A stretch of DNA of 64,000 bases from Sphingomicrobium sp. (GTDB lineage: Bacteria > Pseudomonadota > Alphaproteobacteria > Sphingomonadales > Sphingomonadaceae), in assembly GCA_036376635.1 (NCBI GenBank), contig DASUZY010000052.1, positions 7,905 to 71,904 on the forward strand, written 5' to 3'. A model generated the notes under the pieces. That model worked only from the letters and a program-made list of their open reading frames with translations, did not search any database and was not told the origin of the DNA. The position numbers and the translations under genes are program-made. Below, one piece after another: positions 6,718-20,297 of this stretch (the first letter of the stretch is position 1; each line of letters opens with the position of its first letter).

Positions 6718-9700
6718 ATGCGACTTTCCAGAACCGCTCTGCTCGCAACCACGTTGCTGTCGGGCGTTACCCTGGCTGGCCCTGCTTTTGCGCAGACCAC
6801 AACTACTGCGACGCCACCCACCCCGGCGCCAGCAACGCAGACCTGTGCTGACGGCACTGTGATTGCGGCCAGCGCAACTTGCACGGTCGCGCCGGCTCCT
6901 GCGTCCGTGGCACCCGCGACGCCAGCATCTTCCCAGGAGACGATTGTCGTCACCGGTTCGCGCATCGCGTCGCCGAACATCACGTCGCTCGCTCCGATCC
7001 AGGTCGTCGGTGAGCAGGAAATCAACCAGGCCGGCGCGGTCAACATTCAGGAAGTCCTGAACAACAACCCGGCGTTCGGTACGCCGGCCCTGTCAACGAC
7101 CACCACTGCGTTCCTGACCTCGGGCGCCGGTGTTGCGACCGTCAACCTTCGCCAGCTCGGTGAGAACCGCACCCTGGTGCTGATCAACAACCGCCGCGTC
7201 GTCGGCGGCCTCGCTGGTTCGCCGATCGTCGACTTGAACGACATCCCGACCCAGTTCCTCGAGCGCGTTGACATCCTGACCGGCGGTCAGTCGGCGTTGT
7301 ACGGCTCGGACGCCGTCGCCGGTGTCGTCAACTTCATCTACAAGCGCAATTTCGAGGGCCTACTGCTCGAAGGCCAGTACGGCCTGACTGAGCACGGCGA
7401 TTCGCAACGCTATCAGCTCAGCGCGACTGCCGGCGGCAACTTCGCCGACGGCCGCGGCAACATCATGGTCCACGTGGGCTATAGCTCCGACAAGGGCTTG
7501 CTCTCGCGTGAACGCAAGGACACGCGGGTCGATAACATCAGCCAGATGCAGTATTCGTACGATCCGGCTGATTATGCGGTGGCCCATACGCCGTTCCTGT
7601 CGAGCTATCCTCCGCAGGGCCGGTTCACGTCCGGCGGCATCACCTGGACCTACGGGCCAACGGGCCAGCTGCAGCCGTGCTTCACCACTAACGGCTCGAC
7701 CTGTAAGAGCGCGCTCGGCACGGGAACTGGACCGAACGGCTTTAACCGCCAGTTCTTCCGTACCCTGTCGACCCCGGTCGACCGCTATCTGTTCGCAGAG
7801 CGCAGCCACTTCGACATCACGGACAACATCAGCTTCGTGACCGAAGCGACCTATGCCAAGACGAAAGCGAGCTCGGATATTGAGCCGTTCCCGTTGGACT
7901 CGGTCAACATCAACCCGGTCGATGCAACCGTTCCGATCCAGCTGGTTCCGGGCGGCCCCTGCACCTTCTACACGCCGGCTCCGATCTGCGCCGCGGCTAC
8001 TGACTCGAACGGCGATGGCCTGAAGGACATAAGCTTCCGCAAGCGCTTGTCCGACGTTGGTGACCGTACGGCTACGGCCAATCGCGACTTCTTCCGCATT
8101 GTCGTGAGCCTCGAAGGCAAGCTGTTCCACGACCGGTTCAGCTGGGACATCGGCTACAATTACGGCTCGACCAGTGAAGCTCAGCACTCGACCGGGCAGG
8201 TCAACGTACTGAACTTCTACAACGCCCTTCAGGCAACGTCGGATGCAAACGGCAACCCCGTTTGCGCCAATCCGGTCGCGGTCGCCCAGGGCTGCGTCCC
8301 GCTGAACATCTTCGGCACCAACAGCATGACCCCGGCGATGCTCGCGTATATCAATGCCGACTCGCAGCATAACGTTCAGGTCAAGCAGCAGGTGTGGGAT
8401 GCCAACCTGTCGGGCAGCCTGTTCGATCTTCCCGCGGGTCCGCTCGGCATCGCCATCGGCGCCGAATACCGCAAGGAGTCCAGCACCGAGGACTGGGATG
8501 CGCTGACCAACGAGGGCCTGAACGGCGGCAACGTCCTTCCGGACACCTCGGGCCGGTTCAACGTCAAGGAAGCTTATGGCGAGGTCAACGTGCCGATCCT
8601 CAAGGATCTGCCGTTCGTCAAGCAGCTGAACGTTCGCGGCGCGGGTCGTATTTCCGACTATTCCACGATCGGTAGCGTCAAGACGTGGGAGGTCGGTGGC
8701 GACTGGGCCCCGATCGACGACATCCGCTTCCGCGCGACGTTGGCGAAGGCCGTCCGTGCGCCGAACATCGGCGAGCTGTTCACCGGCCTGTCGCAGACCT
8801 TCCCACTCGTTCGCGACCCTTGCCAAGGCATCGGCGCAACCGGTGGTGGAGCTCTCGGCGACAACTGCCGCGCAGCACCGGGTGTCGCTGCGAACATTGC
8901 GCAGAATGGAACGTTCACGCTGACGCAGGCTGACATCCAGGGTGTCAGCGGCTTCAACGGCGGCAACCCGAACCTCGGGCCGGAGACGGGCCGTACGTTC
9001 ACCGCCGGTGTCGTCATCGCGCCTCGGAACATCAGCTTCCTGCGCAATATGTCGCTCTCGGTCGACTACTGGCACATCAAGATCACCAACGCGATCACGA
9101 CGATCAGCCGTCAGCTGATCCTCGACCAGTGCTATCAGGACGGCTTGGCCAACGCCTGCTCGTTGATCACTCGTAACCCGACCCAGATCGGCGGTGCGAG
9201 CTCTGGTTCGATCAAGTTCGTGAACGACTTCGCGATCAACGCCGCGTCATCGACACGGTCGGGTATCGACGCTGTCCTGCAGTATCGCAGGGGTCTCGGC
9301 ACCTTGTTCGGCAGCCCGCTGAACATGAACGCCCGGATTGCCTACACGCACCTGTTGAAGGGCTACACGATCCCGCTTCCGGGTCAGCCGGCTGACCGTG
9401 TCGCGGGCGAAATCGGAACGCCGAAGGACAAGTTCAACGCAACTCTCGGTTTCGACAACCGCCAGTGGGGCTTGAACCTGACCGGGACATACATCGGCAA
9501 GTCGTACGAGGATGATCAGTTCCTGGACGCGTTCGGGCTCAACCCCGATGCGATCTCGATCAAGCCGATTTTCTACCTCGACGGGCAGCTCCGGTTCACG
9601 CCGGTGCGCAAGTTCGAGTTCTTCGTCGGCGTCGACAACATCACGAATGTGCAGGCTCCGGTCATCCTGTCCGGCTCGCCATTCAACACGACGGGTTCGA

Positions 9701-9768
9701 ACACCGACGAAGCGGTCTACGACGTGTTCGGCCGCCGCTACTACGCCGGTGCGCGCCTCCGCTTCTAA
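6718..9768 (+). CDS. TonB-dependent receptor (TBDR1)
   Basis: Signal peptide ending PAFA; TonB box ETIVVTGS; plug motifs LRQLGENRTLVLIN and YGSDAVAGVVNFI; terminal strand GRRYYAGARLRF. Confidence 0.95.
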   Translation: MRLSRTALLATTLLSGVTLAGPAFAQTTTTATPPTPAPATQTCADGTVIAASATCTVAPAPASVAPATPASSQETIVVTGSRIASPNITSLAPIQVVGEQEINQAGAVNIQEVLNNNPAFGTPALSTTTTAFLTSGAGVATVNLRQLGENRTLVLINNRRVVGGLAGSPIVDLNDIPTQFLERVDILTGGQSALYGSDAVAGVVNFIYKRNFEGLLLEGQYGLTEHGDSQRYQLSATAGGNFADGRGNIMVHVGYSSDKGLLSRERKDTRVDNISQMQYSYDPADYAVAHTPFLSSYPPQGRFTSGGITWTYGPTGQLQPCFTTNGSTCKSALGTGTGPNGFNRQFFRTLSTPVDRYLFAERSHFDITDNISFVTEATYAKTKASSDIEPFPLDSVNINPVDATVPIQLVPGGPCTFYTPAPICAAATDSNGDGLKDISFRKRLSDVGDRTATANRDFFRIVVSLEGKLFHDRFSWDIGYNYGSTSEAQHSTGQVNVLNFYNALQATSDANGNPVCANPVAVAQGCVPLNIFGTNSMTPAMLAYINADSQHNVQVKQQVWDANLSGSLFDLPAGPLGIAIGAEYRKESSTEDWDALTNEGLNGGNVLPDTSGRFNVKEAYGEVNVPILKDLPFVKQLNVRGAGRISDYSTIGSVKTWEVGGDWAPIDDIRFRATLAKAVRAPNIGELFTGLSQTFPLVRDPCQGIGATGGGALGDNCRAAPGVAANIAQNGTFTLTQADIQGVSGFNGGNPNLGPETGRTFTAGVVIAPRNISFLRNMSLSVDYWHIKITNAITTISRQLILDQCYQDGLANACSLITRNPTQIGGASSGSIKFVNDFAINAASSTRSGIDAVLQYRRGLGTLFGSPLNMNARIAYTHLLKGYTIPLPGQPADRVAGEIGTPKDKFNATLGFDNRQWGLNLTGTYIGKSYEDDQFLDAFGLNPDAISIKPIFYLDGQLRFTPVRKFEFFVGVDNITNVQAPVILSGSPFNTTGSNTDEAVYDVFGRRYYAGARLRF

Positions 9769-9793
9769 TCGAAGCCAGGTTGGTAAAGGACTT

Positions 9794-9826
9794 GGGCGGG
9801 GGCTTCGGCTCCCGCCCTTTTCTTTT
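9794..9826 (+). terminator. Intrinsic terminator of TBDR1
   Basis: gggcgggggc-ttcg-gctcccgccc hairpin followed by ttttctttt. Confidence 0.85.
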
Positions 9827-9849
9827 GTGCTTGGGGATGCCGAAGGTGG

Positions 9850-11652
9850 TTAGGGACGAAAGAGCGGCGCGTCGGGGTAGGAGTCCACGACGTCGCCCAA
9901 CGCGCGACGCAATGGCCCGAGCCACTGCTCGAAGTTCCGCCAATGATCGAGCCCAGCAAGGTTCATAGGGCGTCGAACTTGCTCGGAGCTAGGCGTCTTC
10001 ACTGCACGCTTGGTTTCGTGAAACCGAAGACAAGCTTCCTCGAACGGAAGCTCAAGATAGTCGAGGAGACTTCTAATCTCCTGCTCCGGTTCCCGGACCA
10101 GCTCCTCGTGAATGACACGGTGGACGCGACCGGGGAGCATCCGGTCCATGTGCTCCATCAGACGCACGTAGTCGCCGTAGTAACGCCCGAACCATTCGAG
10201 ATCGTAGCTGAAGGCCTGTCCGAAAACGAAATGCTGTTTGAAGTTCGAGAACCCGCAAGCCATCGGGTGCCGCCGCGCGTCAATGATCTTGGCGTTGGGC
10301 AGCATCAGGTGGATCAGTGGCGCCATCAGCCAATTGTTCGGCATCTTGTCGATGAAGCGCGGCTTGCCTTCGATGCGGAATGACTTCGTCTCATCGAGAT
10401 ATTGGGCCCCCATCGCCGCGAATTGTTCAGCGGGGAATGAGGCCAGTAGCTCCAGGAAATTTCGCTCCGCCCGCCCGGCATCACGAGCGACGGCCGACAG
10501 GTTGAGCAGTTCCATCGTCCCTTCGATTGCCGAATGACTCGCCAGGATTTGTTCGACCAACGTCGAACCGGCCCGTGGCATACCAAGCACGAAGACTGGT
10601 TCGCTGGATGGGTCGCCCCAACCTTCCCGCTCGCGGAAGAACTGCCCATCGAACATTGCGCAGAGTTCGTCGACTTCGGTCGTCACGTCGGCAGGATCAT
10701 AATCCAACGACTGCCTTCGGAGCGCATTTCCAGCTTCATAGTGCCGGAAGGCGGGCTCAAACTCGCCCGCATCTTCAAGCGCCTTGCCGAGCGCGAAATG
10801 CAGGTGGAAGCGGTTCTCAACCGAAACGTCGGGGTCACGTACCGCTGCTTCCATCTGGCGCAGGTCCTCGTCGGAAAAATCCGCAACCTTAAGGTTCGAT
10901 AAGTTCCACCATGCCGAGCCAGAAGCTGGTGCGATTTCGATCGCCGTGCGCATTGCCCGGCGACCTTCCTCGGAGCGCCCCACGGTCTTCAGCACATGTC
11001 CGTAGTTCGACCACAGCGTCGCATCGCGCGGCGCTTCCTGCAGGAGCTTCTCGTAAAGCGCGATCGATTCATTGTAGCGCGCGCCGCGGCTTAGCGCCTG
11101 GGCTTTGATTGACTGAGCCGCTCGGTTGGCCGGTTCCCTCTCGAGGATCCTATCGAGTTCCGCGATCGCTTCCAGCGGCCGATTTTGACGCTGTAGCTCC
11201 GAAGCGAGATCGAGTCGCCCGCCGTTGAACTGCGGTTGGAACTCCAGCGCAAGCCGAAGGAGCTGCTCGCATGCGTCATAGTAAGCGAGATCCCTAAGCA
11301 GTCTCGCCATCAATATAAGCGCATTCACGTCGGTCGGCCGCTGGATCAGCCTCTCGCGCAGAATTTTCTCGGCGGTTTCCAGGTCTCCGGCAGCAAGAGC
11401 GTCGGAGGCACGCATCAGCGGATGGTCGAAAGCTTGGACCGTGGTGCGCAGCTGCCCACCTGTCGCCGAATCCCTCTCCAACTGACCAAGCGCCTTCGCC
11501 AGTGTGCGATAGGCCGGGATGTTGAGGGGTTCGTCGGCGATTAGCAGCCGCAGCTCGTGGACAGCCGTCGTCGCGTCCGACCTTGCTTTCAGCTCAAGCT
11601 CGACCAGGCGCGGATCTTGCCGTGATTCTGTCATCTTCGTTTCAGCAGCCAA
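9850..11652 (-). CDS. TPR-repeat sulfotransferase family protein
   Basis: N-terminal TPR-like helical repeats; 5'-PSB motif GMPRAGSTLVEQIL; FIDKMPNN; RHPMACGFS (3'-PB region); VKTPSSEQVR. Confidence 0.92.
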   Translation of the reverse strand: MAAETKMTESRQDPRLVELELKARSDATTAVHELRLLIADEPLNIPAYRTLAKALGQLERDSATGGQLRTTVQAFDHPLMRASDALAAGDLETAEKILRERLIQRPTDVNALILMARLLRDLAYYDACEQLLRLALEFQPQFNGGRLDLASELQRQNRPLEAIAELDRILEREPANRAAQSIKAQALSRGARYNESIALYEKLLQEAPRDATLWSNYGHVLKTVGRSEEGRRAMRTAIEIAPASGSAWWNLSNLKVADFSDEDLRQMEAAVRDPDVSVENRFHLHFALGKALEDAGEFEPAFRHYEAGNALRRQSLDYDPADVTTEVDELCAMFDGQFFREREGWGDPSSEPVFVLGMPRAGSTLVEQILASHSAIEGTMELLNLSAVARDAGRAERNFLELLASFPAEQFAAMGAQYLDETKSFRIEGKPRFIDKMPNNWLMAPLIHLMLPNAKIIDARRHPMACGFSNFKQHFVFGQAFSYDLEWFGRYYGDYVRLMEHMDRMLPGRVHRVIHEELVREPEQEIRSLLDYLELPFEEACLRFHETKRAVKTPSSEQVRRPMNLAGLDHWRNFEQWLGPLRRALGDVVDSYPDAPLFRP

Positions 11653-11655
11653 AGA

Positions 11656-12396
11656 TCAGGGGCGATTGCCGATCGGGCCGGGTCGAGGGTCGGCCCGGAA
11701 CCAGCCGGTAACAGCCAAGCGCTCCGCGTTGACATAAGTCGATACCATCGAAACCGAATGAAGCTGCGGGATGGTGAAGATGTTCAGCGTATTGAACGTC
11801 GGCTTGAACGCCTCCTCGACGTTACCCTCTTTATCGAAGAACTGGAGAAATCCGCCCCAATCCTTGTCCCATACCGGCGACAAGTTCATCACATACGCTG
11901 CTCGCCGCCCCTCCCCACTATGTTCGTCGGTATGGGCCTTCAGGAAGTGCCCAGGCTTGTACCACGTCGCCTGAGCATCAGCCCATTTGATGTCATGGAG
12001 GCCAGTCACCTTGCGGATGAAATCAAGCACAGGCTCGCTGTTGATGAACTCGTAGAAGTCGAACACCGCGAAGCGCGGCGCGTCAGGTGAAAAGTAGGCG
12101 TTGAGGATCGGAAAGAACGAATAAATGAACTGATATTGCGTCCGCGCGCGTTCGCGGATGCCGGTCATAATCTGTGCGGCTTCTGTCTGCCCGAGCTGTG
12201 CCAGGTGCTCGGCGCTCAGCTGAACGACCTTGTCTCCATCATTGAAGGCCATTGCCCAAGGCAGCTGGTGAAGATCGGCGTGCACCTCTTCAGATGAGCC
12301 TTGAGCGAGGAAATCGTGGATCTGCAGCCGAAGCTTCTTCCGGTAATCGGCCGCGAGCGCGTCGGCATTCAGCGCAGGGTTCAGCAAGACTGACAC
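11656..12396 (-). CDS. 2OG-Fe(II) oxygenase, prolyl-4-hydroxylase/EGL-9-like
   Basis: ATWYKPGHFLKAHTD (HxD), WDKDWGGFLQF, distal His in QLHSV, and 2OG-binding Arg in ERLAVTGWF. No signal peptide. Confidence 0.88.
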   Translation of the reverse strand: MSVLLNPALNADALAADYRKKLRLQIHDFLAQGSSEEVHADLHQLPWAMAFNDGDKVVQLSAEHLAQLGQTEAAQIMTGIRERARTQYQFIYSFFPILNAYFSPDAPRFAVFDFYEFINSEPVLDFIRKVTGLHDIKWADAQATWYKPGHFLKAHTDEHSGEGRRAAYVMNLSPVWDKDWGGFLQFFDKEGNVEEAFKPTFNTLNIFTIPQLHSVSMVSTYVNAERLAVTGWFRADPRPGPIGNRP

Positions 12397-12469
12397 GTTG
12401 ACACCAACCTCCGGACTCAGGAACGTGCGCTGCGCCGCAGCACGCGGCTTCTAATGTTCAGAAGCGCCG

Positions 12470-13498
12470 ATGTCTTTGAAGAATGATGCCGCCCCGCTGA
12501 TTGCCGATCCGCAATGGTTTCCCTCCCGCTGGAATCCTCAGGATGGCACCATCCAGTTCGTCCGGCTGACGCGTGCCGAACATGACTCGGTCACCTTTCT
12601 CGGCGACGAATATCTGGCACCGCTGAACGCGCCGTCGACGATGCTTGCATTATCGGACGTTGCCAGGGCTTTGCCCCCGTCGCTTCCCTCACCGCAATAT
12701 ATCTTCCACTCCGCGTTCTGCGGCTCCACGCTATTGTCCCGCGCACTCAACGTGCCCGGCAGCGCGATGTCGCTGAAGGAACCCCAAATCCTGAATACGG
12801 TGACGGAAGCTGCCCGCTCGAATGCCTTGTCTCGTGAGACACTGCAGACGATCGTCGGGCTATTGGCGCGGCCGTTCGGTCCCAACGAGCGGGTCGTCAT
12901 CAAGCCAAGCAATGTCGTGAACCTGCTCGCCACCGGACTGCTCGAAATCGATTCCGGGTCGAACGCCATTTTCCTGTATGCGCCCCTGAACGGGTTTCTG
13001 CAGTCGATCGCGGACAAGGGCCTCTGGGGCCGGATCTTCGCTCGGCAGCTATTCCGGACGCTTCAGTCGGATACTGGCCTGACGTTCGGCTATTCGGTCG
13101 AGGAGACGCTCGATCTGACTGACCTTCAGGCGGCGGGCCTTGCCTGGCTGATGCACCACGCGCAGGCGGCGGCGCTGATGACGCGTTTGCCGGGTCGCGT
13201 ACGAACGCTCAACAGCGAGACCTTCCTCGCCCGTCGATCCGAGACAATCCTGGCGTCTGCGGCCCATCTTCGACTGGCAATCAGCGAAGCCAAAGCCGCG
13301 GAAATTGTCGACGGTCTGGTGTTTGCAACCCACTCAAAGCAGCTTGGGCAGGACTTCAACGAAGCCAAACAGCAATCGAAGTCGCGCGGCGCAATTGTAG
13401 ATGAAGAGATTGTAATGGTGGCAACATGGACGTCCGAAATGGCCAACCGGAACGGCCTGCCAATGCAGCTCCCGGCAGAGTTCCAGCTTATCCCCTAA
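12470..13498 (+). CDS. Hypothetical protein with a sulfotransferase-like P-loop
   Basis: IFHSAFCGSTLLSRAL, SLKEP and VVIKPS resemble sulfotransferase-fold elements, but the PSB Arg/Lys is missing. Confidence 0.65.
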   Translation: MSLKNDAAPLIADPQWFPSRWNPQDGTIQFVRLTRAEHDSVTFLGDEYLAPLNAPSTMLALSDVARALPPSLPSPQYIFHSAFCGSTLLSRALNVPGSAMSLKEPQILNTVTEAARSNALSRETLQTIVGLLARPFGPNERVVIKPSNVVNLLATGLLEIDSGSNAIFLYAPLNGFLQSIADKGLWGRIFARQLFRTLQSDTGLTFGYSVEETLDLTDLQAAGLAWLMHHAQAAALMTRLPGRVRTLNSETFLARRSETILASAAHLRLAISEAKAAEIVDGLVFATHSKQLGQDFNEAKQQSKSRGAIVDEEIVMVATWTSEMANRNGLPMQLPAEFQLIP

Positions 13499-13610
13499 GT
13501 GACGAAAAACTCATCGTAAGTTGTTAGAAAACCTATCTTTCGTTATTGTTACGGAATTACAACGGGCGGCCGAAGAAGTCGCTTCTGGAACATTACACCC
13601 GTTGTCGTTG

Positions 13611-13676
13611 CCCCTCTTTCTCTGATTAGTCTGCTCCCCGACACGAGGCGCCCATTCGTGTCGGGAGAAGAAGGGG
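13611..13676 (+). promoter_or_regulatory. Structured 5' leader of TBDR2 that can occlude the RBS
   Basis: Perfect 10-bp stem 13637-13665. An outer pairing of cccctctttctc with gagaagaagggg (11/12 pairs counting one G-U) covers the SD. Confidence 0.45.
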
Positions 13677-13684
13677 GATTCAGA

Positions 13685-16600
13685 ATGCAGAACCGTATTG
13701 GCGCCGTGCTGCGCTGTGGCAGCGCGTTCACCGCTATAGCGATTGCCGCAATGATGCCGACCGCGGCATCTGCAGCAGCTGCGGCCGATGCCGCACCGCC
13801 GGCCGATGCAACTCAGGCGGCGGCGCAGGCGGCAGCAACAACGCCAACCGGCACCAATGGCAATGAAATTGTCATTACCGGAACGCGCATCGCCGGCATC
13901 ACCAACGCCAACAGCCCGAGCCCGGTCTCGGTTACGACTAGCGAGCAGATCCAGCTTACCAAGTCGACCAGCGTTGAAGATGTCCTTCAACGCATGACGG
14001 GCCCTGACGCCAACGGCATATCGAACACCTCGAACAATGGCGGCACCGGCGTTTCCAGCGTCAGTTTGCGCAATCTCGGGCCGGCGCGAACGCTGGTCCT
14101 GATCGACGGCACGCGCCTGATCCCGAGCGGCGCTAACCAGTCGATCGTCGACATCAACTCGATTCCCGTCGCGATGATCGAGCGGATCGAAGTCCTCCGA
14201 GACGGTGCATCGTCCGTCTACGGTGCGGACGCGATTGGCGGCGTGGTCAACATCATTACTAAGCAGCACGCCAGTGGCGTTCACATCGAGGGTGGCGCGG
14301 GCGCCAGCCAACACGGCGGAGGCAACACCTACAACATCGCGGGTACGATTGCGGCCAATAGCGATGTTGCCAACGTCATCGTCGGATTCAGCTGGGATCA
14401 CCGCAATGCGCTGAATGGCTATCAACGCGACTGGGCCAACGATCCACACATCGGCGATCCAAACTATGAGGGTGGGTCCACCTATCGTACCCAGCTCGAT
14501 ACGCTTCAGTCCGAAGCGCCCGTCACGCTGACTAACGCGACGGTCGTGAACGGCGTGCTTCAGCCCGCTGGAACGACCATCTCCGGCCTGCTGGCGATTA
14601 ACGGGCAATTCTATACTCGGAAGAATCCGGCGGTGGCTGGCCTGCTGCCCAACACGGTGTTTCTCCCGGGACTTGGCGTCGTCAAGCTCAACGCAAACGG
14701 CAGCGCGAACGACCCGTACAACACGTTGTCCGGTTCGCTCGACCGTAAGGAGATCAACGCCGGAGCGCACTACGACATCAACGATAGTGTGACGGTATTC
14801 GCCGACGGTTTCTTCTCTCACCGCACATCGCAGCAGCTTCTCCGCCCGGAACCGCTGCTCGGTGATACAATCGGCAACTCGGTCTATCCGGGCTTCGCGG
14901 TGGCAGCGAACGCTCCTGGGAACTCAACCGGGACAGGCTACTTCGCCTATCTAACGCCAGATCAGTTCGGACCGAGAACTTATGATCAGTCGTCGGATAC
15001 CTGGCGCATCAGGGCCGGTCTGCGCGGCGACCTGTTTGGCGACTTCAAATATGAAGTTGCCGGCGTAGAGCAGCAGAACGACCAGCTTGTGCTGGTTCAC
15101 AACACCGGAAACTTCCTCCACCTGGGCGAGATGACCGGTCAGTTCCCGTGCCTCGACGTGCCGGGCGGCTGTACGGGCGGCGTGCCAACGACTCAGCCGA
15201 ACTGGTTCAATGGGCCTGAGAATATCTTCACCCCTGATCAGCTCGACTACGCCAAGTTCACCATGCAGAGCAGCCAGCATGCCTATGAGCGGTATGTCTA
15301 CGGCAACCTCTCCGGCTCCCTGTTCAGGCTTCCTGGAGGTGATGCGAAGATCTCCGTCGGCGGCGAGTATCGGAAGGAGTTCCTGAGCTTCCTGCCCGAT
15401 CAGCTTGAAAGCGAAGGGTTCGCTCCGAACCAGATCCAGCCGACTGCCGGCGGATATAACGTCAAGGGTCTGTACGGCGAATTGTACTTGCCGCTCATCA
15501 GCGATCGGCCCTTCTTCAAGGCATTCGACATCACGCCCAGCGGCCGTATCGACAAGTACAGCACGTTCGGCACGGCGAAGACCTGGAAGGTCGGTGCGAA
15601 CTGGGCATTGTCGGACGACATCCGCTTCCGCGGTGCATACGCGACCGGCTTCCGTGCGCCTCAGGTCACCGAGTTGTTCGGGGGCCAGGGTCTGTCGGAT
15701 CTGGGCGCGAGCGGTGATCCCTGCGAAACCAACCTGGCGTTGGCACCGGGCAACAGTAACGTCGGCAAGGGCTTGTTGGGCGCTGGTTCGCAGTGTTCCA
15801 AGGCAGTTGCTGGTGGCGCGGCGGTGACGACGTTCACTGATCCGCTCGACCAGATTGCCGGCAGCCAGGTCCAGGTTCTAATCGGCGGCAACCCCGCGCT
15901 GCAGCCCGAAAAGTCGCGCGGCTGGACTGTCGGCGGCGTGTTGACGCCCAGGTTCATGCCGGGCTTCTCGTTCGAGGCCGATTTCTATCGGACGAAGATC
16001 CGGAACCAGATTCTGACCGGCGGCGTCGCTACTGCGGTTGGCGCGGACTACGTCCTCCTCGACTGCTACGGTCCGAACCAGAATCCGGTGTCTTGCGCAC
16101 AGATCCAGCGTTCGGCGAACGGTGCAATCCTGCAGATCGACAGCCTTAACGACAATATCGGCACTCAGACCGTCAAGGGCTATGATCTCGAGCTAACGTT
16201 CGACACCGGCCGGGCGCACTGGGCCATGCCGATCCCGGGCTCGATCCGCCTCGATGCGCAATTGTCGCGGCTGATCCAGAACGACATCGTGAACGCCGAT
16301 GGCAGCGTGACGAGCTATGCGGGCACCTTCAACGTCAACAACGAGACGGTCTATCCAAAGTGGAAAGGCCTTATCAACATCGACTACGCGAACCGCGGCT
16401 GGGGTCTGCACTGGGATGCCCAGTACAGCTCGAAGCTCGTCAATGTTGATGGCTCGACGCCGGTGTACGGCAACGAAGTCCACGATCGCTGGATCCATTC
16501 AGCCAGCGTTTGGGTCGGACTGCATGACTGGGCGGGTCTGTCGCGAGCCCGGCTGGTGCTTGGCGTAGATAATGTCTTCGACAAGAACCCGCCGTTCATC

Positions 16601-16876
16601 GGCACCGACTCAATCTGTAAGTGCAACTCGATCGCGGGTCCGTACGACTTCACCGGAAGGATGTTCTACTTCCGGTTCTCGGCCGACATCGATCGTCACC
16701 GGCCGGTTGCGCCGCCGCCTCCGCCGCCACCCCCGCCGCCTCCGCCGCCTCCAGCGACAGTGACGTGCGAGTCCGGCGCGGTGATCACGGCTCCGGGCAC
16801 CTGCCCAGCTCCGCCGCCGCCTCCGCCTCCGCCTCCGGCCCCGCCGCCGCCGGCTCCGGCGCCCGAGCGCGGCTAA
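13685..16876 (+). CDS. TonB-dependent receptor (TBDR2) with a C-terminal polyPro/C-x11-C/PERG tail
   Basis: ATG 13685 after aggggg SD; TonB box NEIVITGT; LRNLGPARTLVLIDG; YGADAIGGVVNII; last strand GRMFYFRFSADI followed by a ~60-aa tail. Confidence 0.95.
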   Translation: MQNRIGAVLRCGSAFTAIAIAAMMPTAASAAAAADAAPPADATQAAAQAAATTPTGTNGNEIVITGTRIAGITNANSPSPVSVTTSEQIQLTKSTSVEDVLQRMTGPDANGISNTSNNGGTGVSSVSLRNLGPARTLVLIDGTRLIPSGANQSIVDINSIPVAMIERIEVLRDGASSVYGADAIGGVVNIITKQHASGVHIEGGAGASQHGGGNTYNIAGTIAANSDVANVIVGFSWDHRNALNGYQRDWANDPHIGDPNYEGGSTYRTQLDTLQSEAPVTLTNATVVNGVLQPAGTTISGLLAINGQFYTRKNPAVAGLLPNTVFLPGLGVVKLNANGSANDPYNTLSGSLDRKEINAGAHYDINDSVTVFADGFFSHRTSQQLLRPEPLLGDTIGNSVYPGFAVAANAPGNSTGTGYFAYLTPDQFGPRTYDQSSDTWRIRAGLRGDLFGDFKYEVAGVEQQNDQLVLVHNTGNFLHLGEMTGQFPCLDVPGGCTGGVPTTQPNWFNGPENIFTPDQLDYAKFTMQSSQHAYERYVYGNLSGSLFRLPGGDAKISVGGEYRKEFLSFLPDQLESEGFAPNQIQPTAGGYNVKGLYGELYLPLISDRPFFKAFDITPSGRIDKYSTFGTAKTWKVGANWALSDDIRFRGAYATGFRAPQVTELFGGQGLSDLGASGDPCETNLALAPGNSNVGKGLLGAGSQCSKAVAGGAAVTTFTDPLDQIAGSQVQVLIGGNPALQPEKSRGWTVGGVLTPRFMPGFSFEADFYRTKIRNQILTGGVATAVGADYVLLDCYGPNQNPVSCAQIQRSANGAILQIDSLNDNIGTQTVKGYDLELTFDTGRAHWAMPIPGSIRLDAQLSRLIQNDIVNADGSVTSYAGTFNVNNETVYPKWKGLINIDYANRGWGLHWDAQYSSKLVNVDGSTPVYGNEVHDRWIHSASVWVGLHDWAGLSRARLVLGVDNVFDKNPPFIGTDSICKCNSIAGPYDFTGRMFYFRFSADIDRHRPVAPPPPPPPPPPPPPPATVTCESGAVITAPGTCPAPPPPPPPPPAPPPPAPAPERG

Positions 16877-16898
16877 ACCTCGGAGCTGACCAACGAGA

Positions 16899-16928
16899 GG
16901 GGCGGTGCCTAGCACCGCCCCCTTTTTT
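16899..16928 (+). terminator. Intrinsic terminator of TBDR2
   Basis: ggggcggtgc-cta-gcaccgcccc followed by tttttt. Confidence 0.85.
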
Positions 16929-16951
16929 GCGCCCGAGCGAAGTGTCGGGTC

Positions 16952-16969
16952 TGTGACGCAATTGTCACA
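16952..16969. promoter_or_regulatory. Palindromic operator candidate TGTGAC-N6-GTCACA
   Basis: Perfect 6-bp arms between the TBDR2 terminator and the TBDR3 leader. Confidence 0.45.
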
Positions 16970-17102
16970 CCAGCATAACGAAAGATAACAGTCTTATCGG
17001 AGCGTGTTGCCTCCCACCCCCTTACTTTGGATAGGAGTCTGTTCGCGGGCCTCCGCGAATGGGGAGGGGTCGCGCCGGCTTGTCCGGCTGAAAGGGAGCG
17101 AC

Positions 17103-20100
17103 ATGACACTGACAAAATCGCGTATCGCCGCCGGTTGGCGGTGCGGAACCGCTGCGACGGCCATCGCCGTTGCCGCGATCGCCACGCCTGCTTTCGCGCA
17201 GGATCAAGGCGCCAGCAGCACTTCGACTGCGGCCAAGGACCAGAACCAGGGGACTGCAGCACCCCAGGTCGGAACGAATGCACCGGCTGTTCCTGTCTCG
17301 AACGTCAATCCAGGGGCGACGCCGAGCAACCAGGAAATCGTCATCACCGGCACGATGTTCCGGCGTACCAACACGGAGACGCCGTCTCCGGTGACCGTCC
17401 TCTCTTCTGAAACCCTGTCGAGGCGCGGCATCACCACTGTCGCGGACGCGGTTCGCTCGATCTCCGCTGACAATTCGGGCTCGGTTCCGACTGCCTTCTC
17501 CAACGGCTTTGGCAGCGGCGGCGCGGCCCCCTCTCTTCGCGGCCTGACGGTCAATTCGACGCTGGTGCTAATGGACGGCCAGCGCATCTCCATTTTCCCG
17601 CTCGCCGACGACGGCCAGCGCAACTTCGTCGACCTCAACACGCTCCCGCGCGTCGCGCTGGACCGTATCGAGGTGCTGAAGGACGGCGCATCGTCGACCT
17701 ACGGCGCAGACGCGATCGGCGGCGTGGTCAACCTCATCACGCGCAAGTCATTCAACGGTCTTGACGCCAACATTGAGGGCGGAATTACTCAGAAGGGCGA
17801 TGGCGCGCATTGGCGCGGTTCGTTCCTGGCCGGCACCGGCGATTACGACAATCGCGGGTTCAACATTTATGTTGGCGGCGAATATGAGCTGAACAAGGCG
17901 ATCTACACGGCGGATCGCGGATTCCCTTACAACACGGCGAACCTTTCGAACCTGCCGGGCGGACAGGACCTCAACTGGGGCACGTTCATCAATGGTTCGA
18001 GCTCACAGAGCCCGGTGTTCGTCACGGTTCCGGCTTCGCAATCCGATCTGACGGATCCGCGGACGGGGTCGATCATCTCCGGCGGCGCGTCAGTCATTCT
18101 CAACCCGTCCCAGTGCGGTGCGTTCAATGGATCGATCGTTCCGGGTACGAACGGCGGACAGACCTGCGAGATCAACCAGTATCTGATCAAGCCAGGCCTG
18201 ACGATCCAACCGAAGACCGTAAGGTACGGCGGCGTGGTTCGCGCGTCGGTTCGCGTTTCGGACAACAGCGAAGCCTATGTGATGGGCAGCTTCTATCGCA
18301 GCCAGGCGACAGTCTACCCGCTTGGCGCGCGCACTCGCTCGACCAACCCGATCAATACCACGAGCCTCGTTCTTCCGGCTTACCTAACAAACGGTTCGAT
18401 CGACCCCTACGATCCGTTCGCGTCGGCCGGGTGCGATGCGACCGACACGACGGCAGCCAACTACTGTCCGGCCGCGTTGCTTCGCTTCCGCTTTCCGAAC
18501 ATCGCACGTACGGCAACGGGAACCAGTAGCGTGTGGCGCATCGCGGCTGGCATCAACGGTGGGTTCGGCGATGCCTGGCACTACCAGGTGGATGCTACCG
18601 CATCGGCCAGCGACCTGCACCGCGTGTCGACCGGCAACATCTATTACCCGGCGCTCGCGAACGCGATCAACAACGGACTCTACAACTTCGCCGATCCGCT
18701 TGCGACACCGGCGAATGTCGTCAACGACATCCTGCGGACTGTCGACACCACGTCGCAGTCCCAGCTGTTCGGTGTGCAGGGCACCATCTCCCGGGCGCTG
18801 TTCCAGCTTCCGGGCGGACCGCTGCAACTCGGCGTGGGTGCTCAAATCCGCCACGAGGAGCTCGACAACCCGAACCAGAATCCGAACAACGACTTCATCG
18901 ACGTGAACCAGGTGTTCGCGAAGGGTCAGCGGACGGTCGAGGCCGGATATTTCGAAATCTCGGCGCCGATCGTGAAGCAGCTCGAGGTCGACGTTTCGGG
19001 CCGGTACGACCATTACTCGGCCGGATTCAGCGCGTTCTCGCCGAAGGCTGGGTTCAAGTTCACACCGATCCGCCAGCTGGCTTTCCGCGGAACATACTCC
19101 CGCGGTTTCCGCGCTCCTTCGTTCGCTGAGAGCGGCGGTGGTGTCATCGGCTTCACCACGGTTCGACCACCCTGCATCGTTCGAATCACGCACGGTGCGA
19201 CGGGCGATGCGGACAACTGCTCGGGCGGTGACAACTACGTCAATTCGCAGGCTCTCGGGTATAACTCCGCGGGTAACCCGAACCTGAAGCCCGAAAAGTC
19301 GCGTAACTTCACGCTTGGTGTCGTTGCCCAGCCGATTGCTCCGCTGAGCTTCACGTTGGACTATTACAACATCAAGAAGACCGACGTGATTACGCAAGGT
19401 CCGCTCGCCAATACGGCGATCGAGAACTTCTACGAAGGCTTGCCATTGCCGCCTGGTTATTCGGTTCAGACCTACCCGGCTGATCCGGATTTCCCGAACG
19501 GCATCCCGGTCGTGTCGATTGTGAACACGCCATATGTGAACGCGGCGTCGATCCAGACCTCGGGTCTCGACTTCTCGGCGCTGTTCCAGAAGCGGTTCTC
19601 ACCGTCTGTCCGGTTCTCGAGCACGCTCGAGGTCACCAAGATCCTGAAGTTCAACCTGACGCCGTGCGGCGGGTGCGCGGTTCAGCATTATGCAGGCACC
19701 TTGGGCCCGTACCAGCTGTCGTCGGGTGCCGGTACGCCGGACTGGCGCGGCAACTGGTCGAACAGCCTGGAGTTTGGCCGGGCTACGGTGACGGCGACCG
19801 CCAACTATATCGGCAGCTATTGGGACTACTCGGAGGACACGAGCGCTCTGCCGATTACCGACAAGTGCGTTGCGGCGGGCGATCTGTACGACTCGCACTT
19901 CTGCAAGACCAAGAAGTTCATCTGGGTTGACCTGGTCGGCAGCTTCAAGCTCAACGACAACGTCACGATTTACGGCAACGTGCTGAACCTGTTCAACGCG
20001 CATGCCCCGATCGAGCCGGCGAACTACGCCGGTGCGGCGGCCAACTACAACCCGACCTGGGACCAGGCGGGTGCAATTGGCCGGGCGTTCCGTTTGGGCG

Positions 20101-20297
20101 TGAACTTCAGCTTCCGCCCGCGTCCGTACGTTGCACCGGTCGCTCCGGTCATGGCTCCGCCGCCTCCGCCGCCCCCGGCGACGGTGACGTGCGAGTCTGG
20201 TGCGGTGATCACGGCTCCGGGTACCTGCCCGCCGGCTCCGGCGCCGCAGCTTCCGCCGCCGCCACCGCCGCCGGCGCCGGCTCCAGAGCGCGGTTAA
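17103..20297 (+). CDS. TonB-dependent receptor (TBDR3) with a C-terminal polyPro/C-x11-C/PERG tail
   Basis: ATG 17103 after agggag SD; TonB box QEIVITGT; LRGLTVNSTLVLMDG; YGADAIGGVVNLI; last strand GRAFRLGVNFSF followed by a 60-aa tail. Confidence 0.95.
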   Translation: MTLTKSRIAAGWRCGTAATAIAVAAIATPAFAQDQGASSTSTAAKDQNQGTAAPQVGTNAPAVPVSNVNPGATPSNQEIVITGTMFRRTNTETPSPVTVLSSETLSRRGITTVADAVRSISADNSGSVPTAFSNGFGSGGAAPSLRGLTVNSTLVLMDGQRISIFPLADDGQRNFVDLNTLPRVALDRIEVLKDGASSTYGADAIGGVVNLITRKSFNGLDANIEGGITQKGDGAHWRGSFLAGTGDYDNRGFNIYVGGEYELNKAIYTADRGFPYNTANLSNLPGGQDLNWGTFINGSSSQSPVFVTVPASQSDLTDPRTGSIISGGASVILNPSQCGAFNGSIVPGTNGGQTCEINQYLIKPGLTIQPKTVRYGGVVRASVRVSDNSEAYVMGSFYRSQATVYPLGARTRSTNPINTTSLVLPAYLTNGSIDPYDPFASAGCDATDTTAANYCPAALLRFRFPNIARTATGTSSVWRIAAGINGGFGDAWHYQVDATASASDLHRVSTGNIYYPALANAINNGLYNFADPLATPANVVNDILRTVDTTSQSQLFGVQGTISRALFQLPGGPLQLGVGAQIRHEELDNPNQNPNNDFIDVNQVFAKGQRTVEAGYFEISAPIVKQLEVDVSGRYDHYSAGFSAFSPKAGFKFTPIRQLAFRGTYSRGFRAPSFAESGGGVIGFTTVRPPCIVRITHGATGDADNCSGGDNYVNSQALGYNSAGNPNLKPEKSRNFTLGVVAQPIAPLSFTLDYYNIKKTDVITQGPLANTAIENFYEGLPLPPGYSVQTYPADPDFPNGIPVVSIVNTPYVNAASIQTSGLDFSALFQKRFSPSVRFSSTLEVTKILKFNLTPCGGCAVQHYAGTLGPYQLSSGAGTPDWRGNWSNSLEFGRATVTATANYIGSYWDYSEDTSALPITDKCVAAGDLYDSHFCKTKKFIWVDLVGSFKLNDNVTIYGNVLNLFNAHAPIEPANYAGAAANYNPTWDQAGAIGRAFRLGVNFSFRPRPYVAPVAPVMAPPPPPPPATVTCESGAVITAPGTCPPAPAPQLPPPPPPPAPAPERG

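Follow-up and report, generated by a model that had tools for sequence, protein, structure and literature searches.

A polyproline tail ending in Glu-Arg-Gly on outer membrane proteins of Sphingomonadaceae: a candidate periplasmic tether

Introduction

Proteins of the OmpA family share a plan in which an eight-strand barrel is followed by a proline-rich hinge and by the peptidoglycan-binding OmpA_C domain (PF00691). Enterobacteria, with the enzymes LdtA/B/C, have Braun's lipoprotein Lpp, a small outer membrane lipoprotein that serves as a stiff ruler about 8 nm long and is attached to the wall at its very C-terminus (reviewed in PMC12729407). Barrels tied to peptidoglycan via a terminal periplasmic motif have also been described, namely Legionella pneumophila Lpg1810 and, linked at the N-terminus, Omp25 and BbpA/B of Brucella and Coxiella (PMC12729407). 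These barrels belong to the few known answers to wall attachment without Lpp, and all of them rely on amine acceptors.

The present work concerns 64,000 nucleotides of a Sphingomicrobium sp. genome (assembly GCA_036376635.1, contig DASUZY010000052.1, positions 7,905 to 71,904; hereafter the window), in which three TonB-dependent receptors (TBDR1, TBDR2 and TBDR3) carry a short C-x11-C module, here called the bead. Bead and tail are two separate things, and an undescribed polyproline tail ending in Glu-Arg-Gly (ERG) is the more notable feature. It bears on how the outer membrane is kept at the wall in bacteria that lack Braun's lipoprotein; to our knowledge, Sphingomonadaceae also have no LPS.

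Periplasmic extensions of the three receptors

All three receptors are encoded on the forward strand and give matches above the cut-offs to PF07715 and PF00593, as expected of an N-terminal Plug and a 22-strand TonB_dep_Rec barrel. The positions previously reported for their beads were confirmed by translation. TBDR1 (6718-9768, 1016 aa; ORF and translation, Plug and TonB_dep_Rec_b-barrel domains) ends canonically in ..ARLRF, with no C-terminal tail and no ERG end; its terminal barrel aromatic is the C-terminus of the protein, which is not the case in TBDR2 or TBDR3. The bead of TBDR1, ATQTCADGTVIAASATC (6832-6882; Cys codons 6844-6846 and 6880-6882), is located between the signal peptide (..GPAFA/Q) and the TonB box ETIVVTGSRI (6937-6966), in an N-terminal periplasmic extension (6811-6933) composed of TPPTPAP, the bead and TVAPAPASVAPATPASS and closely followed by the box. 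This copy scores 34 bits with the motif profile.

TBDR2 (13685-16876, likely start ATG 13685) reaches the end of its barrel, ..FYFRF, at 16664-16678 and continues for 65 residues (16679-16873, stop codon 16874-16876). This C-terminal tail begins with SADIDRHRPVA and runs through 14 prolines (16712-16753), the bead ATVTCESGAVITAPGTC (16754-16804) and a Pro-rich spacer of 20 aa (16805-16864) to ERG (16865-16873); its proline codons are mixed (CCG 8, CCT 3, CCA 2, CCC 1) and the tail profile matches it with E = 6.8e-14. TBDR3 (17103-20297, likely start ATG 17103) is built alike: beyond the barrel end ..GVNFSF (20097-20114) there are 60 residues (20115-20294, stop codon 20295-20297) consisting of RPRPYVAPVAPVMA, seven prolines (20157-20177), the bead ATVTCESGAVITAPGTC (20178-20228), a 19-aa Pro-rich spacer (20229-20285) and ERG (20286-20294), with E = 2.6e-15.

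TBDR2 and TBDR3 are only 28% identical as whole proteins. Their beads are nevertheless identical over 17 residues and share 47 of 51 nucleotides, and the four differences (ACA/ACG, TCC/TCT and twice GGC/GGT) are all synonymous, exactly as reported before, which speaks for selection on the protein sequence. The two tails are near-identical in DNA and the similarity stops at the stop codon. They have a private variant in common which, given the divergence of the proteins, fits an exchange of the tail between both genes and thereby the former suggestion that the module moved between receptors.

The earlier note had placed the module at opposite ends of three receptors, always between Pro-rich flanks and on a polyproline stalk. 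The stalk was found in TBDR2 and TBDR3, whereas the flanks in TBDR1 are rich in Pro, Ala and Thr and are not polyproline. The N-terminal copy is a one-off, missing from all five TBDR1 orthologues found, and the framing by opposite ends is consequently abandoned.

Anatomy of the tail and its tip

Tail statistics were obtained from 124 distinct candidate tails, about eight of which are spurious frames. The general layout comprises the barrel end, a polyproline run of about 17-20 residues, the bead, a second run of about 10 prolines and x-E-R-G-COOH, with a tail length of 50-65 residues. This length is constrained: in 95 of the 124 tails 17-19 residues lie between the second Cys and the C-terminus, and 114 of them close with ERG plus 0-2 residues. 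In about a third of tails ERG is succeeded by a single variable residue, hence a free Gly carboxylate is not strictly needed. Neither a conserved Lys nor a free amine was found at the tip in the 124 tails, and upstream of it Lys is not conserved either.

ERG is invariant over at least seven genera, and its codons are not: Glu is encoded by GAG (73) or GAA (41), Arg by CGC (94), CGG (10), CGT (6), CGA (3) or AGG (1), and Gly by GGC (78), GGT (23), GGG (7) or GGA (6). The stop codon of the tail varies too. The terminal ERG, which is also present on proteins without a bead, is the element of the tail that behaves like an address. The tripeptide had been mentioned before in passing only.

The bead as a linker element

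The consensus of the bead is A-T-Q/K-T-C-P-D/N-G-S-V-I-x-A-T-x-x-C-P. A profile of 19 motif columns finds it far above chance at 10 sites in this genome (per-genome E 2.6e-10 to 1.4e-5), and just one other strong site was recovered across 400 genomes of the class. Both cysteines are invariant in all 124 candidate tails; counted from the first of them, Cys1, Gly4 and Cys13 are invariant, Pro2, Asp3, Val6, Ile7, Ala9 and Thr10 are conserved at about 80-90%, and the loop residues 8, 11 and 12 are free to vary. In the AlphaFold2 model the bead forms a small beta-hairpin (strands 253-255 and 261-263, pLDDT about 80), while pLDDT is 76-90 over most of the tail and about 65 in the last five residues. 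The invariant cysteines and the predicted hairpin are in line with the disulfide closure proposed earlier, and the bead is probably a small disulfide-stapled beta-hairpin.

The bead is not specific to TonB-dependent receptors, and its framing as a receptor feature is not supported; it is a generic building unit of extended linkers, periplasmic or extracellular. It is found within the proline linkers of sphingomonad OmpA-type proteins, in pairs in the TonB spacers of several Sphingomonadaceae genera, and in a tiny lipoprotein. Tandem arrays of 3-11 beads, one of them from a betaproteobacterium, join unrelated domains in unrelated secreted proteins. This pattern of occurrence fits a structural spacer better than the docking tag previously suggested. 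What the earlier note said of a portable periplasmic module in proline-rich stalks, under selection as a protein, is borne out, and its mention of ...TCPDG.VI...C...PERG tails in Sphingomonadales proved correct. Pfam and NCBIfam hold no model for the bead, isolated tails give no match even at E <= 10, and for proteins with as many as 11 beads in tandem Pfam gave no model across the repeat region. In public records the proteins with bead or tail are named only 'hypothetical', 'opacity protein-like' or 'outer membrane beta-barrel protein'. As an unannotated linker repeat, the C-x11-C bead merits a profile-HMM family.

Hosts and distribution

This genome has seven tails, carried by five TonB-dependent receptors and two eight-strand OMP_b-brl barrels; in other genomes autotransporter beta-domains carry them as well. 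The tail of fixed geometry is modular and transferable over at least three barrel architectures. A similarly built version with two beads makes up a minimal lipoprotein: an ORF of 100 codons encodes about 88 residues consisting only of a lipobox, polyproline, two beads and ..GERG, and it is conserved in three other genomes. The tail profile detects tails in all 31 genomes sampled from Sphingomicrobium (GTDB genus). Tails are also present in at least six further genera of Sphingomonadaceae, and more than 1,500 public protein clusters match the tail region.

ERG ends without a bead occur on M28, S9, M3 and GH3 hydrolases, a TolC-like protein and a Gly-zipper lipoprotein, all of which have signal peptides (the four hydrolases among them) or lipoboxes. 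The hydrolases have short Ala/Pro linkers without polyproline. Within the genus the ERG end is kept in 9 of 11 M28 orthologues, in 4 of 10 S9 orthologues and, besides this genome, in 4 of 9 M3 orthologues; none of the M3 orthologues sampled from other genera has it, and the ERG end of the TolC-like protein was seen in this genome only. Even-stranded barrels and TolC have the C-terminus in the periplasm. Together with the signal peptides of the soluble hosts, this topology places the C-terminus of every host in the periplasm.

One OmpA-type protein, L073, has a barrel 48-54% identical to the barrels of ERG type. Both kinds share the same run of 19 prolines and nearly the same bead, after which L073 goes on into OmpA_C and the others into polyPro-ERG. 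In one homologous barrel family polyPro-ERG stands at the position of the peptidoglycan-binding domain. No OmpA_C (PF00691) was detected in the tails by Pfam/NCBIfam at E <= 10, the domain being present only in the OmpA-type relatives (L014, L071, L073 and L194). There are only two OmpA_C proteins and no barrel-OmpA_C fusion in this genome; in other families of the order the copy number is 3-9. The OmpA-type protein persists beside the tails in some genomes of the genus, so the tail is not a clean replacement.

Possible functions of the tail

It is tentatively proposed, at a little under an even chance, that the tail is a periplasmic tether in which the ERG tip serves as address and the bead as structural spacer. 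The polyproline rods and the bead would set the reach of the tether, about 10-12 nm if a fully extended polyproline-II helix is assumed, and the tip would bind, or be joined to, a target in the periplasm, for which the peptidoglycan layer or a protein associated with the wall are the likeliest candidates. The tail would then do the job that OmpA_C does in homologous barrels, and ERG would also keep the tagged periplasmic hydrolases in place.

PDZ domains are known to read C-terminal tripeptides, and ERG could instead be a signal for a C-terminus-binding periplasmic protein, such as a PDZ protease or chaperone of the Prc/CtpA or DegP/DegQ type, which steers turnover, processing or delivery with no mechanical tether. 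The tag does lie at the C-terminus or at most 1-2 residues from it, its envelope hosts are mixed and include soluble hydrolases, and the extension shifts the barrel beta-signal away from the C-terminus. Such a signal is nevertheless rather unlikely, as it explains neither the conserved geometry of two rods and a bead, nor the tight spacing of 17-19 residues, nor a lipoprotein made of linker and tip only, nor polyPro-ERG at the position of OmpA_C.

The proposal of the earlier note, in which the bead, closed by a disulfide, would be the functional tag and offer a docking site on its polyproline stalk to the wall, a modifying enzyme or some partner protein, appears quite improbable. Strong conservation, an ordered predicted hairpin and the vicinity of the wall-binding domain in OmpA-type proteins agree with it; yet bead arrays link unrelated domains in unrelated bacteria, beads are also found in TonB spacers, ERG-tagged hydrolases do without a bead, the TBDR1 copy is missing from all five orthologues found and three loop residues vary freely.

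It is highly doubtful that the tail is a passive spacer in which ERG merely caps the polyproline, for example against a C-terminal Pro at translation termination or against tail-specific proteases. Rods of constrained length, predicted with high confidence by AlphaFold2, and a bead that is a generic linker element would suit a spacer, but a cap needs no invariant E-R-G held through synonymous codon change in at least seven genera and would be unexpected on hydrolases that lack polyproline.

As to the manner of attachment of the tether, the known L,D-transpeptidase route has the protein as acceptor and cannot apply as it does to Lpp, since a conserved Lys or free amine is missing from the tip. 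One YkuD enzyme of this genome has a phyletic pattern which does not track the tail-bearing genera. Without an amine the protein can only be an acyl donor. It is a long shot that ERG(-X)-COOH mimics the end of a stem peptide (D-iGlu, meso-DAP, D-Ala, with or without the second D-Ala) and that a periplasmic transpeptidase uses the tail as acyl donor, cleaving after Arg or Gly and joining the tail to the amine of meso-DAP. A variable residue tolerated after Gly is what would be expected of a leaving group. An ERG tag common to unrelated envelope proteins also agrees with a donor role. If it were true, barrels, the minimal lipoprotein and periplasmic hydrolases would be covalently fixed to the wall in bacteria without Lpp, a Gram-negative counterpart of sortase anchoring.

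A functionless tail, spread by gene conversion after CCG slippage or kept as an in-frame DNA element (terminator, recombination site), is largely refuted by the codon data and is extremely improbable: the near-identical tail DNA of the divergent TBDR2 and TBDR3 does indicate that DNA exchange between genes happens, in a region that is GC-rich and repetitive, but the proline codons are mixed, the ERG and stop codons vary synonymously, the DNA similarity ends at the stop codon, and frame, both cysteines and spacing are kept in more than 100 distinct tails from at least seven genera.

Should the tether hold, polyproline rods would make a new envelope-spacing device and ERG a candidate periplasmic address tag. 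The editable rod length would offer a handle on the width of the periplasm in cultured strains, e.g. Sphingomonas daechungensis JCM 17887.

Relation to described envelope systems

Like LPXTG/sortase, PEP-CTERM/exosortase and GlyGly-CTERM/rhombosortase signals, ERG is a short C-terminal motif common to many unrelated secreted proteins of one genome. Those signals, however, precede a transmembrane helix and a basic cluster and are cleaved, whereas the protein here ends 0-2 residues beyond ERG, with no match to an NCBIfam sorting-signal model; a signal of this kind was rejected. The spacer of TonB is likewise an extended proline-rich rod that spans the periplasm, with two beads in some sphingomonads. 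Nevertheless TonB has an inner membrane anchor and a folded end that binds the TonB box, while the tails extend from the outer membrane and finish with a tripeptide.

The sphingomonad mini-lipoprotein follows the same overall logic as Lpp. Its predicted rod would be a polyproline-II helix with two putative disulfide beads in contrast to the trimeric coiled coil of Lpp, and its tip is ERG instead of the C-terminal Lys on which the known chemistry depends. Lpg1810, Omp25 and BbpA/B resemble the tailed barrels as outer membrane barrels with a terminal periplasmic motif, although a wall link of the sphingomonad tails is only proposed. Their acceptor for an L,D-transpeptidase is a Lys or an N-terminal amine on a short extension, and the tails are 50-65 residues long, of structured geometry and with no amine at the tip.

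The OmpA family is related as well. The tailed eight-strand barrels belong to the same barrel family (PF13505), with structural matches to the OmpA transmembrane domain, NspA and Ail; they share the polyproline run and bead with L073 and have the same periplasmic topology. Unlike OmpA, they carry about 10 further prolines and ERG-COOH instead of OmpA_C, and the same tail has also been grafted onto TonB-dependent receptors, autotransporters and lipoproteins.

Tail architecture in the receptors and in the genome

Translation returned the three C-x11-C stretches named in the earlier note, ATQTCADGTVIAASATC at 6832-6882 in TBDR1 (6718..9768, +) and ATVTCESGAVITAPGTC at 16754-16804 in TBDR2 (13685..16876, +) and 20178-20228 in TBDR3 (17103..20297, +), and their hosts were rightly taken for TonB-dependent receptors, with Plug and barrel domains in each. 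The 17-residue motif (hereafter the bead) of TBDR1 is placed after the signal peptide and ahead of the TonB box. The other two receptors have theirs 30 (TBDR2) and 21 residues (TBDR3) beyond the last barrel strand, and past the usual terminal Phe these proteins run on for 65 and 60 residues respectively to the common end ..APAPERG. The nucleotide comparison of the two beads was also reproduced (4 of 51 positions differ, all four synonymously). DNA similarity of the two genes spans the bead as well as the terminal ..PPPPAPAPERG stretch and is gone past the stop codon, and the bead variant CESGAVITAPGTC is private to this adjacent pair among all tails sampled. Given also an identity of only 28% between the whole proteins, exchange of the tail between these neighbouring genes is probable, and, as every change is synonymous, the tail may since have been kept under purifying selection.

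Between TBDR1 and TBDR2 (9850-12396, minus strand; 12470-13498, plus strand) are encoded a TPR-plus-sulfotransferase protein, a 2OG-Fe(II) oxygenase and a 342-aa protein without Pfam match, possibly a substrate-processing cluster for the receptors. The oxygenase (11656-12396) was considered as a tail hydroxylase and dropped, as it has no signal peptide and no link of these genes to the tails was seen.

A search of all six reading frames of the assembly (2.46 Mb in 146 contigs, about 96% complete) brought out seven proteins, five TonB-dependent receptors and two small OMP_b-brl barrels, that share one layout: barrel end, polyproline, (A)T-Q/V-T-C-x-x-G-x-V-I/V-x5-C-P, polyproline and x-E-R-G-stop. 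No Pfam or NCBIfam model covers this tail, whether isolated tails or whole hosts are scanned, and literature searches for C-terminal extensions of polyproline or proline-rich type (Sphingomonas, OmpA, TonB-dependent receptors) gave nothing relevant. A profile of the seven tails matched in every genome drawn from the same genus, 19/19 in one sample and 12/12 in another (both tool-drawn subsets of the available genomes), with no match in genomes of the order's other families. Judged by named records, the tail-bearing genus is GTDB Sphingomicrobium, including NCBI 'Sphingomonas' arvum, arenae, daechungensis and sp. URHD0057; the 80 named loci are a biased set, since the search pattern favours near-identical tails. 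Complete ERG tails on eight-strand barrels or TonB-dependent receptors occur in at least six further Sphingomonadaceae genera, so that of 112 genera sampled in the family at least 7 are positive. In a collection of 5.8 billion proteins the tail region is matched by over 1,500 clusters (160-520 aa), named just 'opacity protein-like', 'OmpA-OmpF porin' or 'outer membrane beta-barrel protein', and the tail is also carried by autotransporter beta-domains (proteins of 2,000-2,500 aa).

Constraint and predicted structure of the tail

The tail set comprised 124 distinct candidates, about 8 of which are spurious frames. Both Cys and the Gly are invariant, and 114 of the 124 have ERG at the end: in 77 it is the exact terminus, in 36 it is followed by a single variable residue (Q, L, F, N, R, H and others) and in one by two residues. 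Codons of this tip vary synonymously: GAG 73 and GAA 41 for Glu; CGC 94, CGG 10, CGT 6, CGA 3 and AGG 1 for Arg; GGC 78, GGT 23, GGG 7 and GGA 6 for Gly; all three stop codons are in use. The longest proline run has a median of 16.5 residues ahead of the bead and 10 behind it, and in 95/124 tails the C-terminus is 17-19 residues away from the second Cys. The invariant residues, synonymous ERG codons and narrow spacing show that selection acts on the protein and that tail geometry is constrained. A DNA-level element (repeat, terminator or slippage artefact) is rejected in view of mixed proline codons, synonymous ERG and stop codons and the loss of similarity after the stop.

In an AlphaFold2 model of an eight-strand host (21 aligned homologues, mean pLDDT 85), most of the tail has pLDDT 76-90, falling to about 65 in the last five residues, and the bead is predicted as a two-strand hairpin (T-Q-T, turn C-P-D-G-S, V-I-L). 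The barrel of this host is similar in structure to NspA, Ail and the transmembrane domain of OmpA. Abundant outer membrane proteins with tails contain 14-24 consecutive prolines, for example at 16712-16753, written in mixed codons and not as a pure CCG repeat; translation of these genes is therefore expected to depend heavily on EF-P.

The ERG terminus without the bead

The survey of ERG ends covered 17 long open reading frames of this genome, 13 of which encode envelope proteins: each has a signal peptide or a lipobox, and a Pro/Ala-rich linker leads up to its tip; the remaining four look like spurious frames. Six of the 13 are bead-less: Peptidase_M28 (C80:2558-4330), Peptidase_S9 (C94:30493-32664), GH3 (C96:8815-11163), Peptidase_M3 (C126:15223-17481), a Gly-zipper lipoprotein (C119:7203-7856) and a TolC-like OEP protein. 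The four hydrolases, which have signal peptides, and the Gly-zipper lipoprotein end in [KPG]-x-E-R-G after a short Ala/Pro linker. Within the genus the tip is present in 9/11 M28 orthologues (..KGERG), in 4/10 of S9 (..PERG) and, besides this genome, in 4/9 of M3 (..KGERG, KTERGS/Q, RGERGR); none of the M3 orthologues sampled from other genera ends in ERG (about 28 loci read, 43 genera with a match). The TolC-like end ..SSPERG belongs to this genome's copy only among genus orthologues. The TolC-like orthologues L157-L166 carry a C-terminal extension of 60-90 residues, which in most genomes ends in another conserved motif, ..GVT(x)PPQ/R, and their gene always adjoins that of the S9 peptidase. 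From these comparisons the ERG tip is seen as a feature separate from the bead. It might be recognised by a C-terminus-binding protease or chaperone, which we regard as rather unlikely.

A fourteenth ERG-ended envelope protein, below the length cut-off of the survey, is a mini-lipoprotein (L022) encoded outside the window at C66:1113-1415 (+) by a 100-codon frame, with a product of about 88 residues. It consists of lipobox (LAAC), polyproline, bead, polyproline, bead, polyproline and RRAGERG, with nothing else, and is kept in at least three other genomes of the genus (L221-L223). By analogy it looks like a minimal Lpp-style ruler made of polyproline. Its flanking genes (the end of the ribosomal/rpoA operon and permease-like genes) offer no functional clue.

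The bead as a linker element

With a motif-only profile the bead was found in 13/112 Sphingomonadaceae genera, and essentially no matches were obtained in 400 genomes from 308 genera of the class. The only strong match outside Sphingomonadaceae in that class-wide sample is L024, of a genome from a different family (G284), a Cys-rich secreted protein of 558 aa with one perfect bead, TTQTCPDGSVIPVSSNCPP. In other Sphingomonadaceae genera the bead stands, usually twice, in the barrel-to-OmpA_C linker of OmpA-like proteins and in the proline-rich spacer of TonB ahead of its C-terminal domain. Just 298 clusters match it among 1.84 billion representative proteins; in the best 150 of these, 76 have one copy (67 with C-terminal tail geometry, 3 N-terminal), 19 have two and 55 have 3-11 in tandem. 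Such arrays (P0124-P0134, P0141, P0146, P0178), with a period of about 19-20 aa, join unrelated domains (Calx-beta to DUF1996, lipobox to subtilase, CHAT to OmpA_C); one array protein also has a PASTA domain, one is betaproteobacterial (Giesbergeria), and no model covered the repeats when the tandem-bead proteins were scanned against Pfam. In other genomes of the genus a DUF4139-related protein of about 550 aa (L020, L021) has an internal polyPro-bead-polyPro insert, directly followed by a TonB-box-like ..IMVTGSRV.. segment.

The N-terminal copy of TBDR1, the sole such case in the assembly, did not prove to be conserved, as 0/5 orthologues found (44-64% identity) have it. Two of these, L217 and L220, carry N-terminal extensions without the bead and with other Cys pairs, C-x9-C and C-x12-C respectively. 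The bead had been proposed as a specific docking tag; arrays between unrelated domains, the OmpA and TonB linkers and the absence from TBDR1 orthologues are better explained by a structural spacer, and docking is therefore considered improbable.

The link to OmpA_C is seen in L073, an OmpA-type protein of a Sphingomonas MAG, whose barrel is 48-54% identical to ERG-type barrels, as close as these are to one another, and which shares with them a 19-proline run and a near-identical bead. After the bead it continues into the peptidoglycan-binding OmpA_C domain, where ERG-type barrels have about 10 prolines and ERG. Only two OmpA_C proteins, both of about 210-230 aa, and no barrel-OmpA_C fusion were found in this genome; in other families of the order there are 3-9 such proteins, among them the usual fusions of 365-400 aa. 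A clean replacement of OmpA_C by the tail holds only in part: in some genomes of the genus an OmpA-type copy persists, so both forms coexist.

A possible periplasmic tether and known wall links

The C-termini of all tail hosts are periplasmic. Should the rods adopt the polyproline-II helix, with a rise of about 0.31 nm per residue, a reach of roughly 10-12 nm would follow for the tail. We therefore read the tail, tentatively, as a periplasmic tether, in which polyproline rods and bead would fix the reach and the ERG tip would be an address whose most likely target is the wall or a protein associated with it; the bead would have come from the linker repertoire of OmpA and TonB. That the tail is a passive spacer appears distinctly improbable, and that it has no function hardly credible.

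In all known protein-wall links the protein supplies an amine: Lpp and OutB are joined via a C-terminal Lys, Lpg1810 by Lys-Thr, and Omp25 and BbpA/B through their N-termini (PMC12729407). No ERG-type attachment is listed in that review of LD-transpeptidases (PMC12729407). This genome encodes three YkuD (L,D-transpeptidase) proteins; orthologues of the single enzyme compared are found outside the tail-bearing genera too, and several tail-bearing genera have a weak match or none, a pattern that speaks neither for nor against an L,D-transpeptidase partner. Unlike the amine-bearing Lpp, OutB, Lpg1810, Omp25 and BbpA/B, the ERG tip has no such amine, and any covalent link to the wall would therefore require a new reaction in which the protein donates the acyl group; for this, the boldest of the readings, we see little likelihood. 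The reach assumed for the putative tether is similar to or beyond the outer membrane-wall gap of E. coli, ~8.5 nm (PMC12729407).
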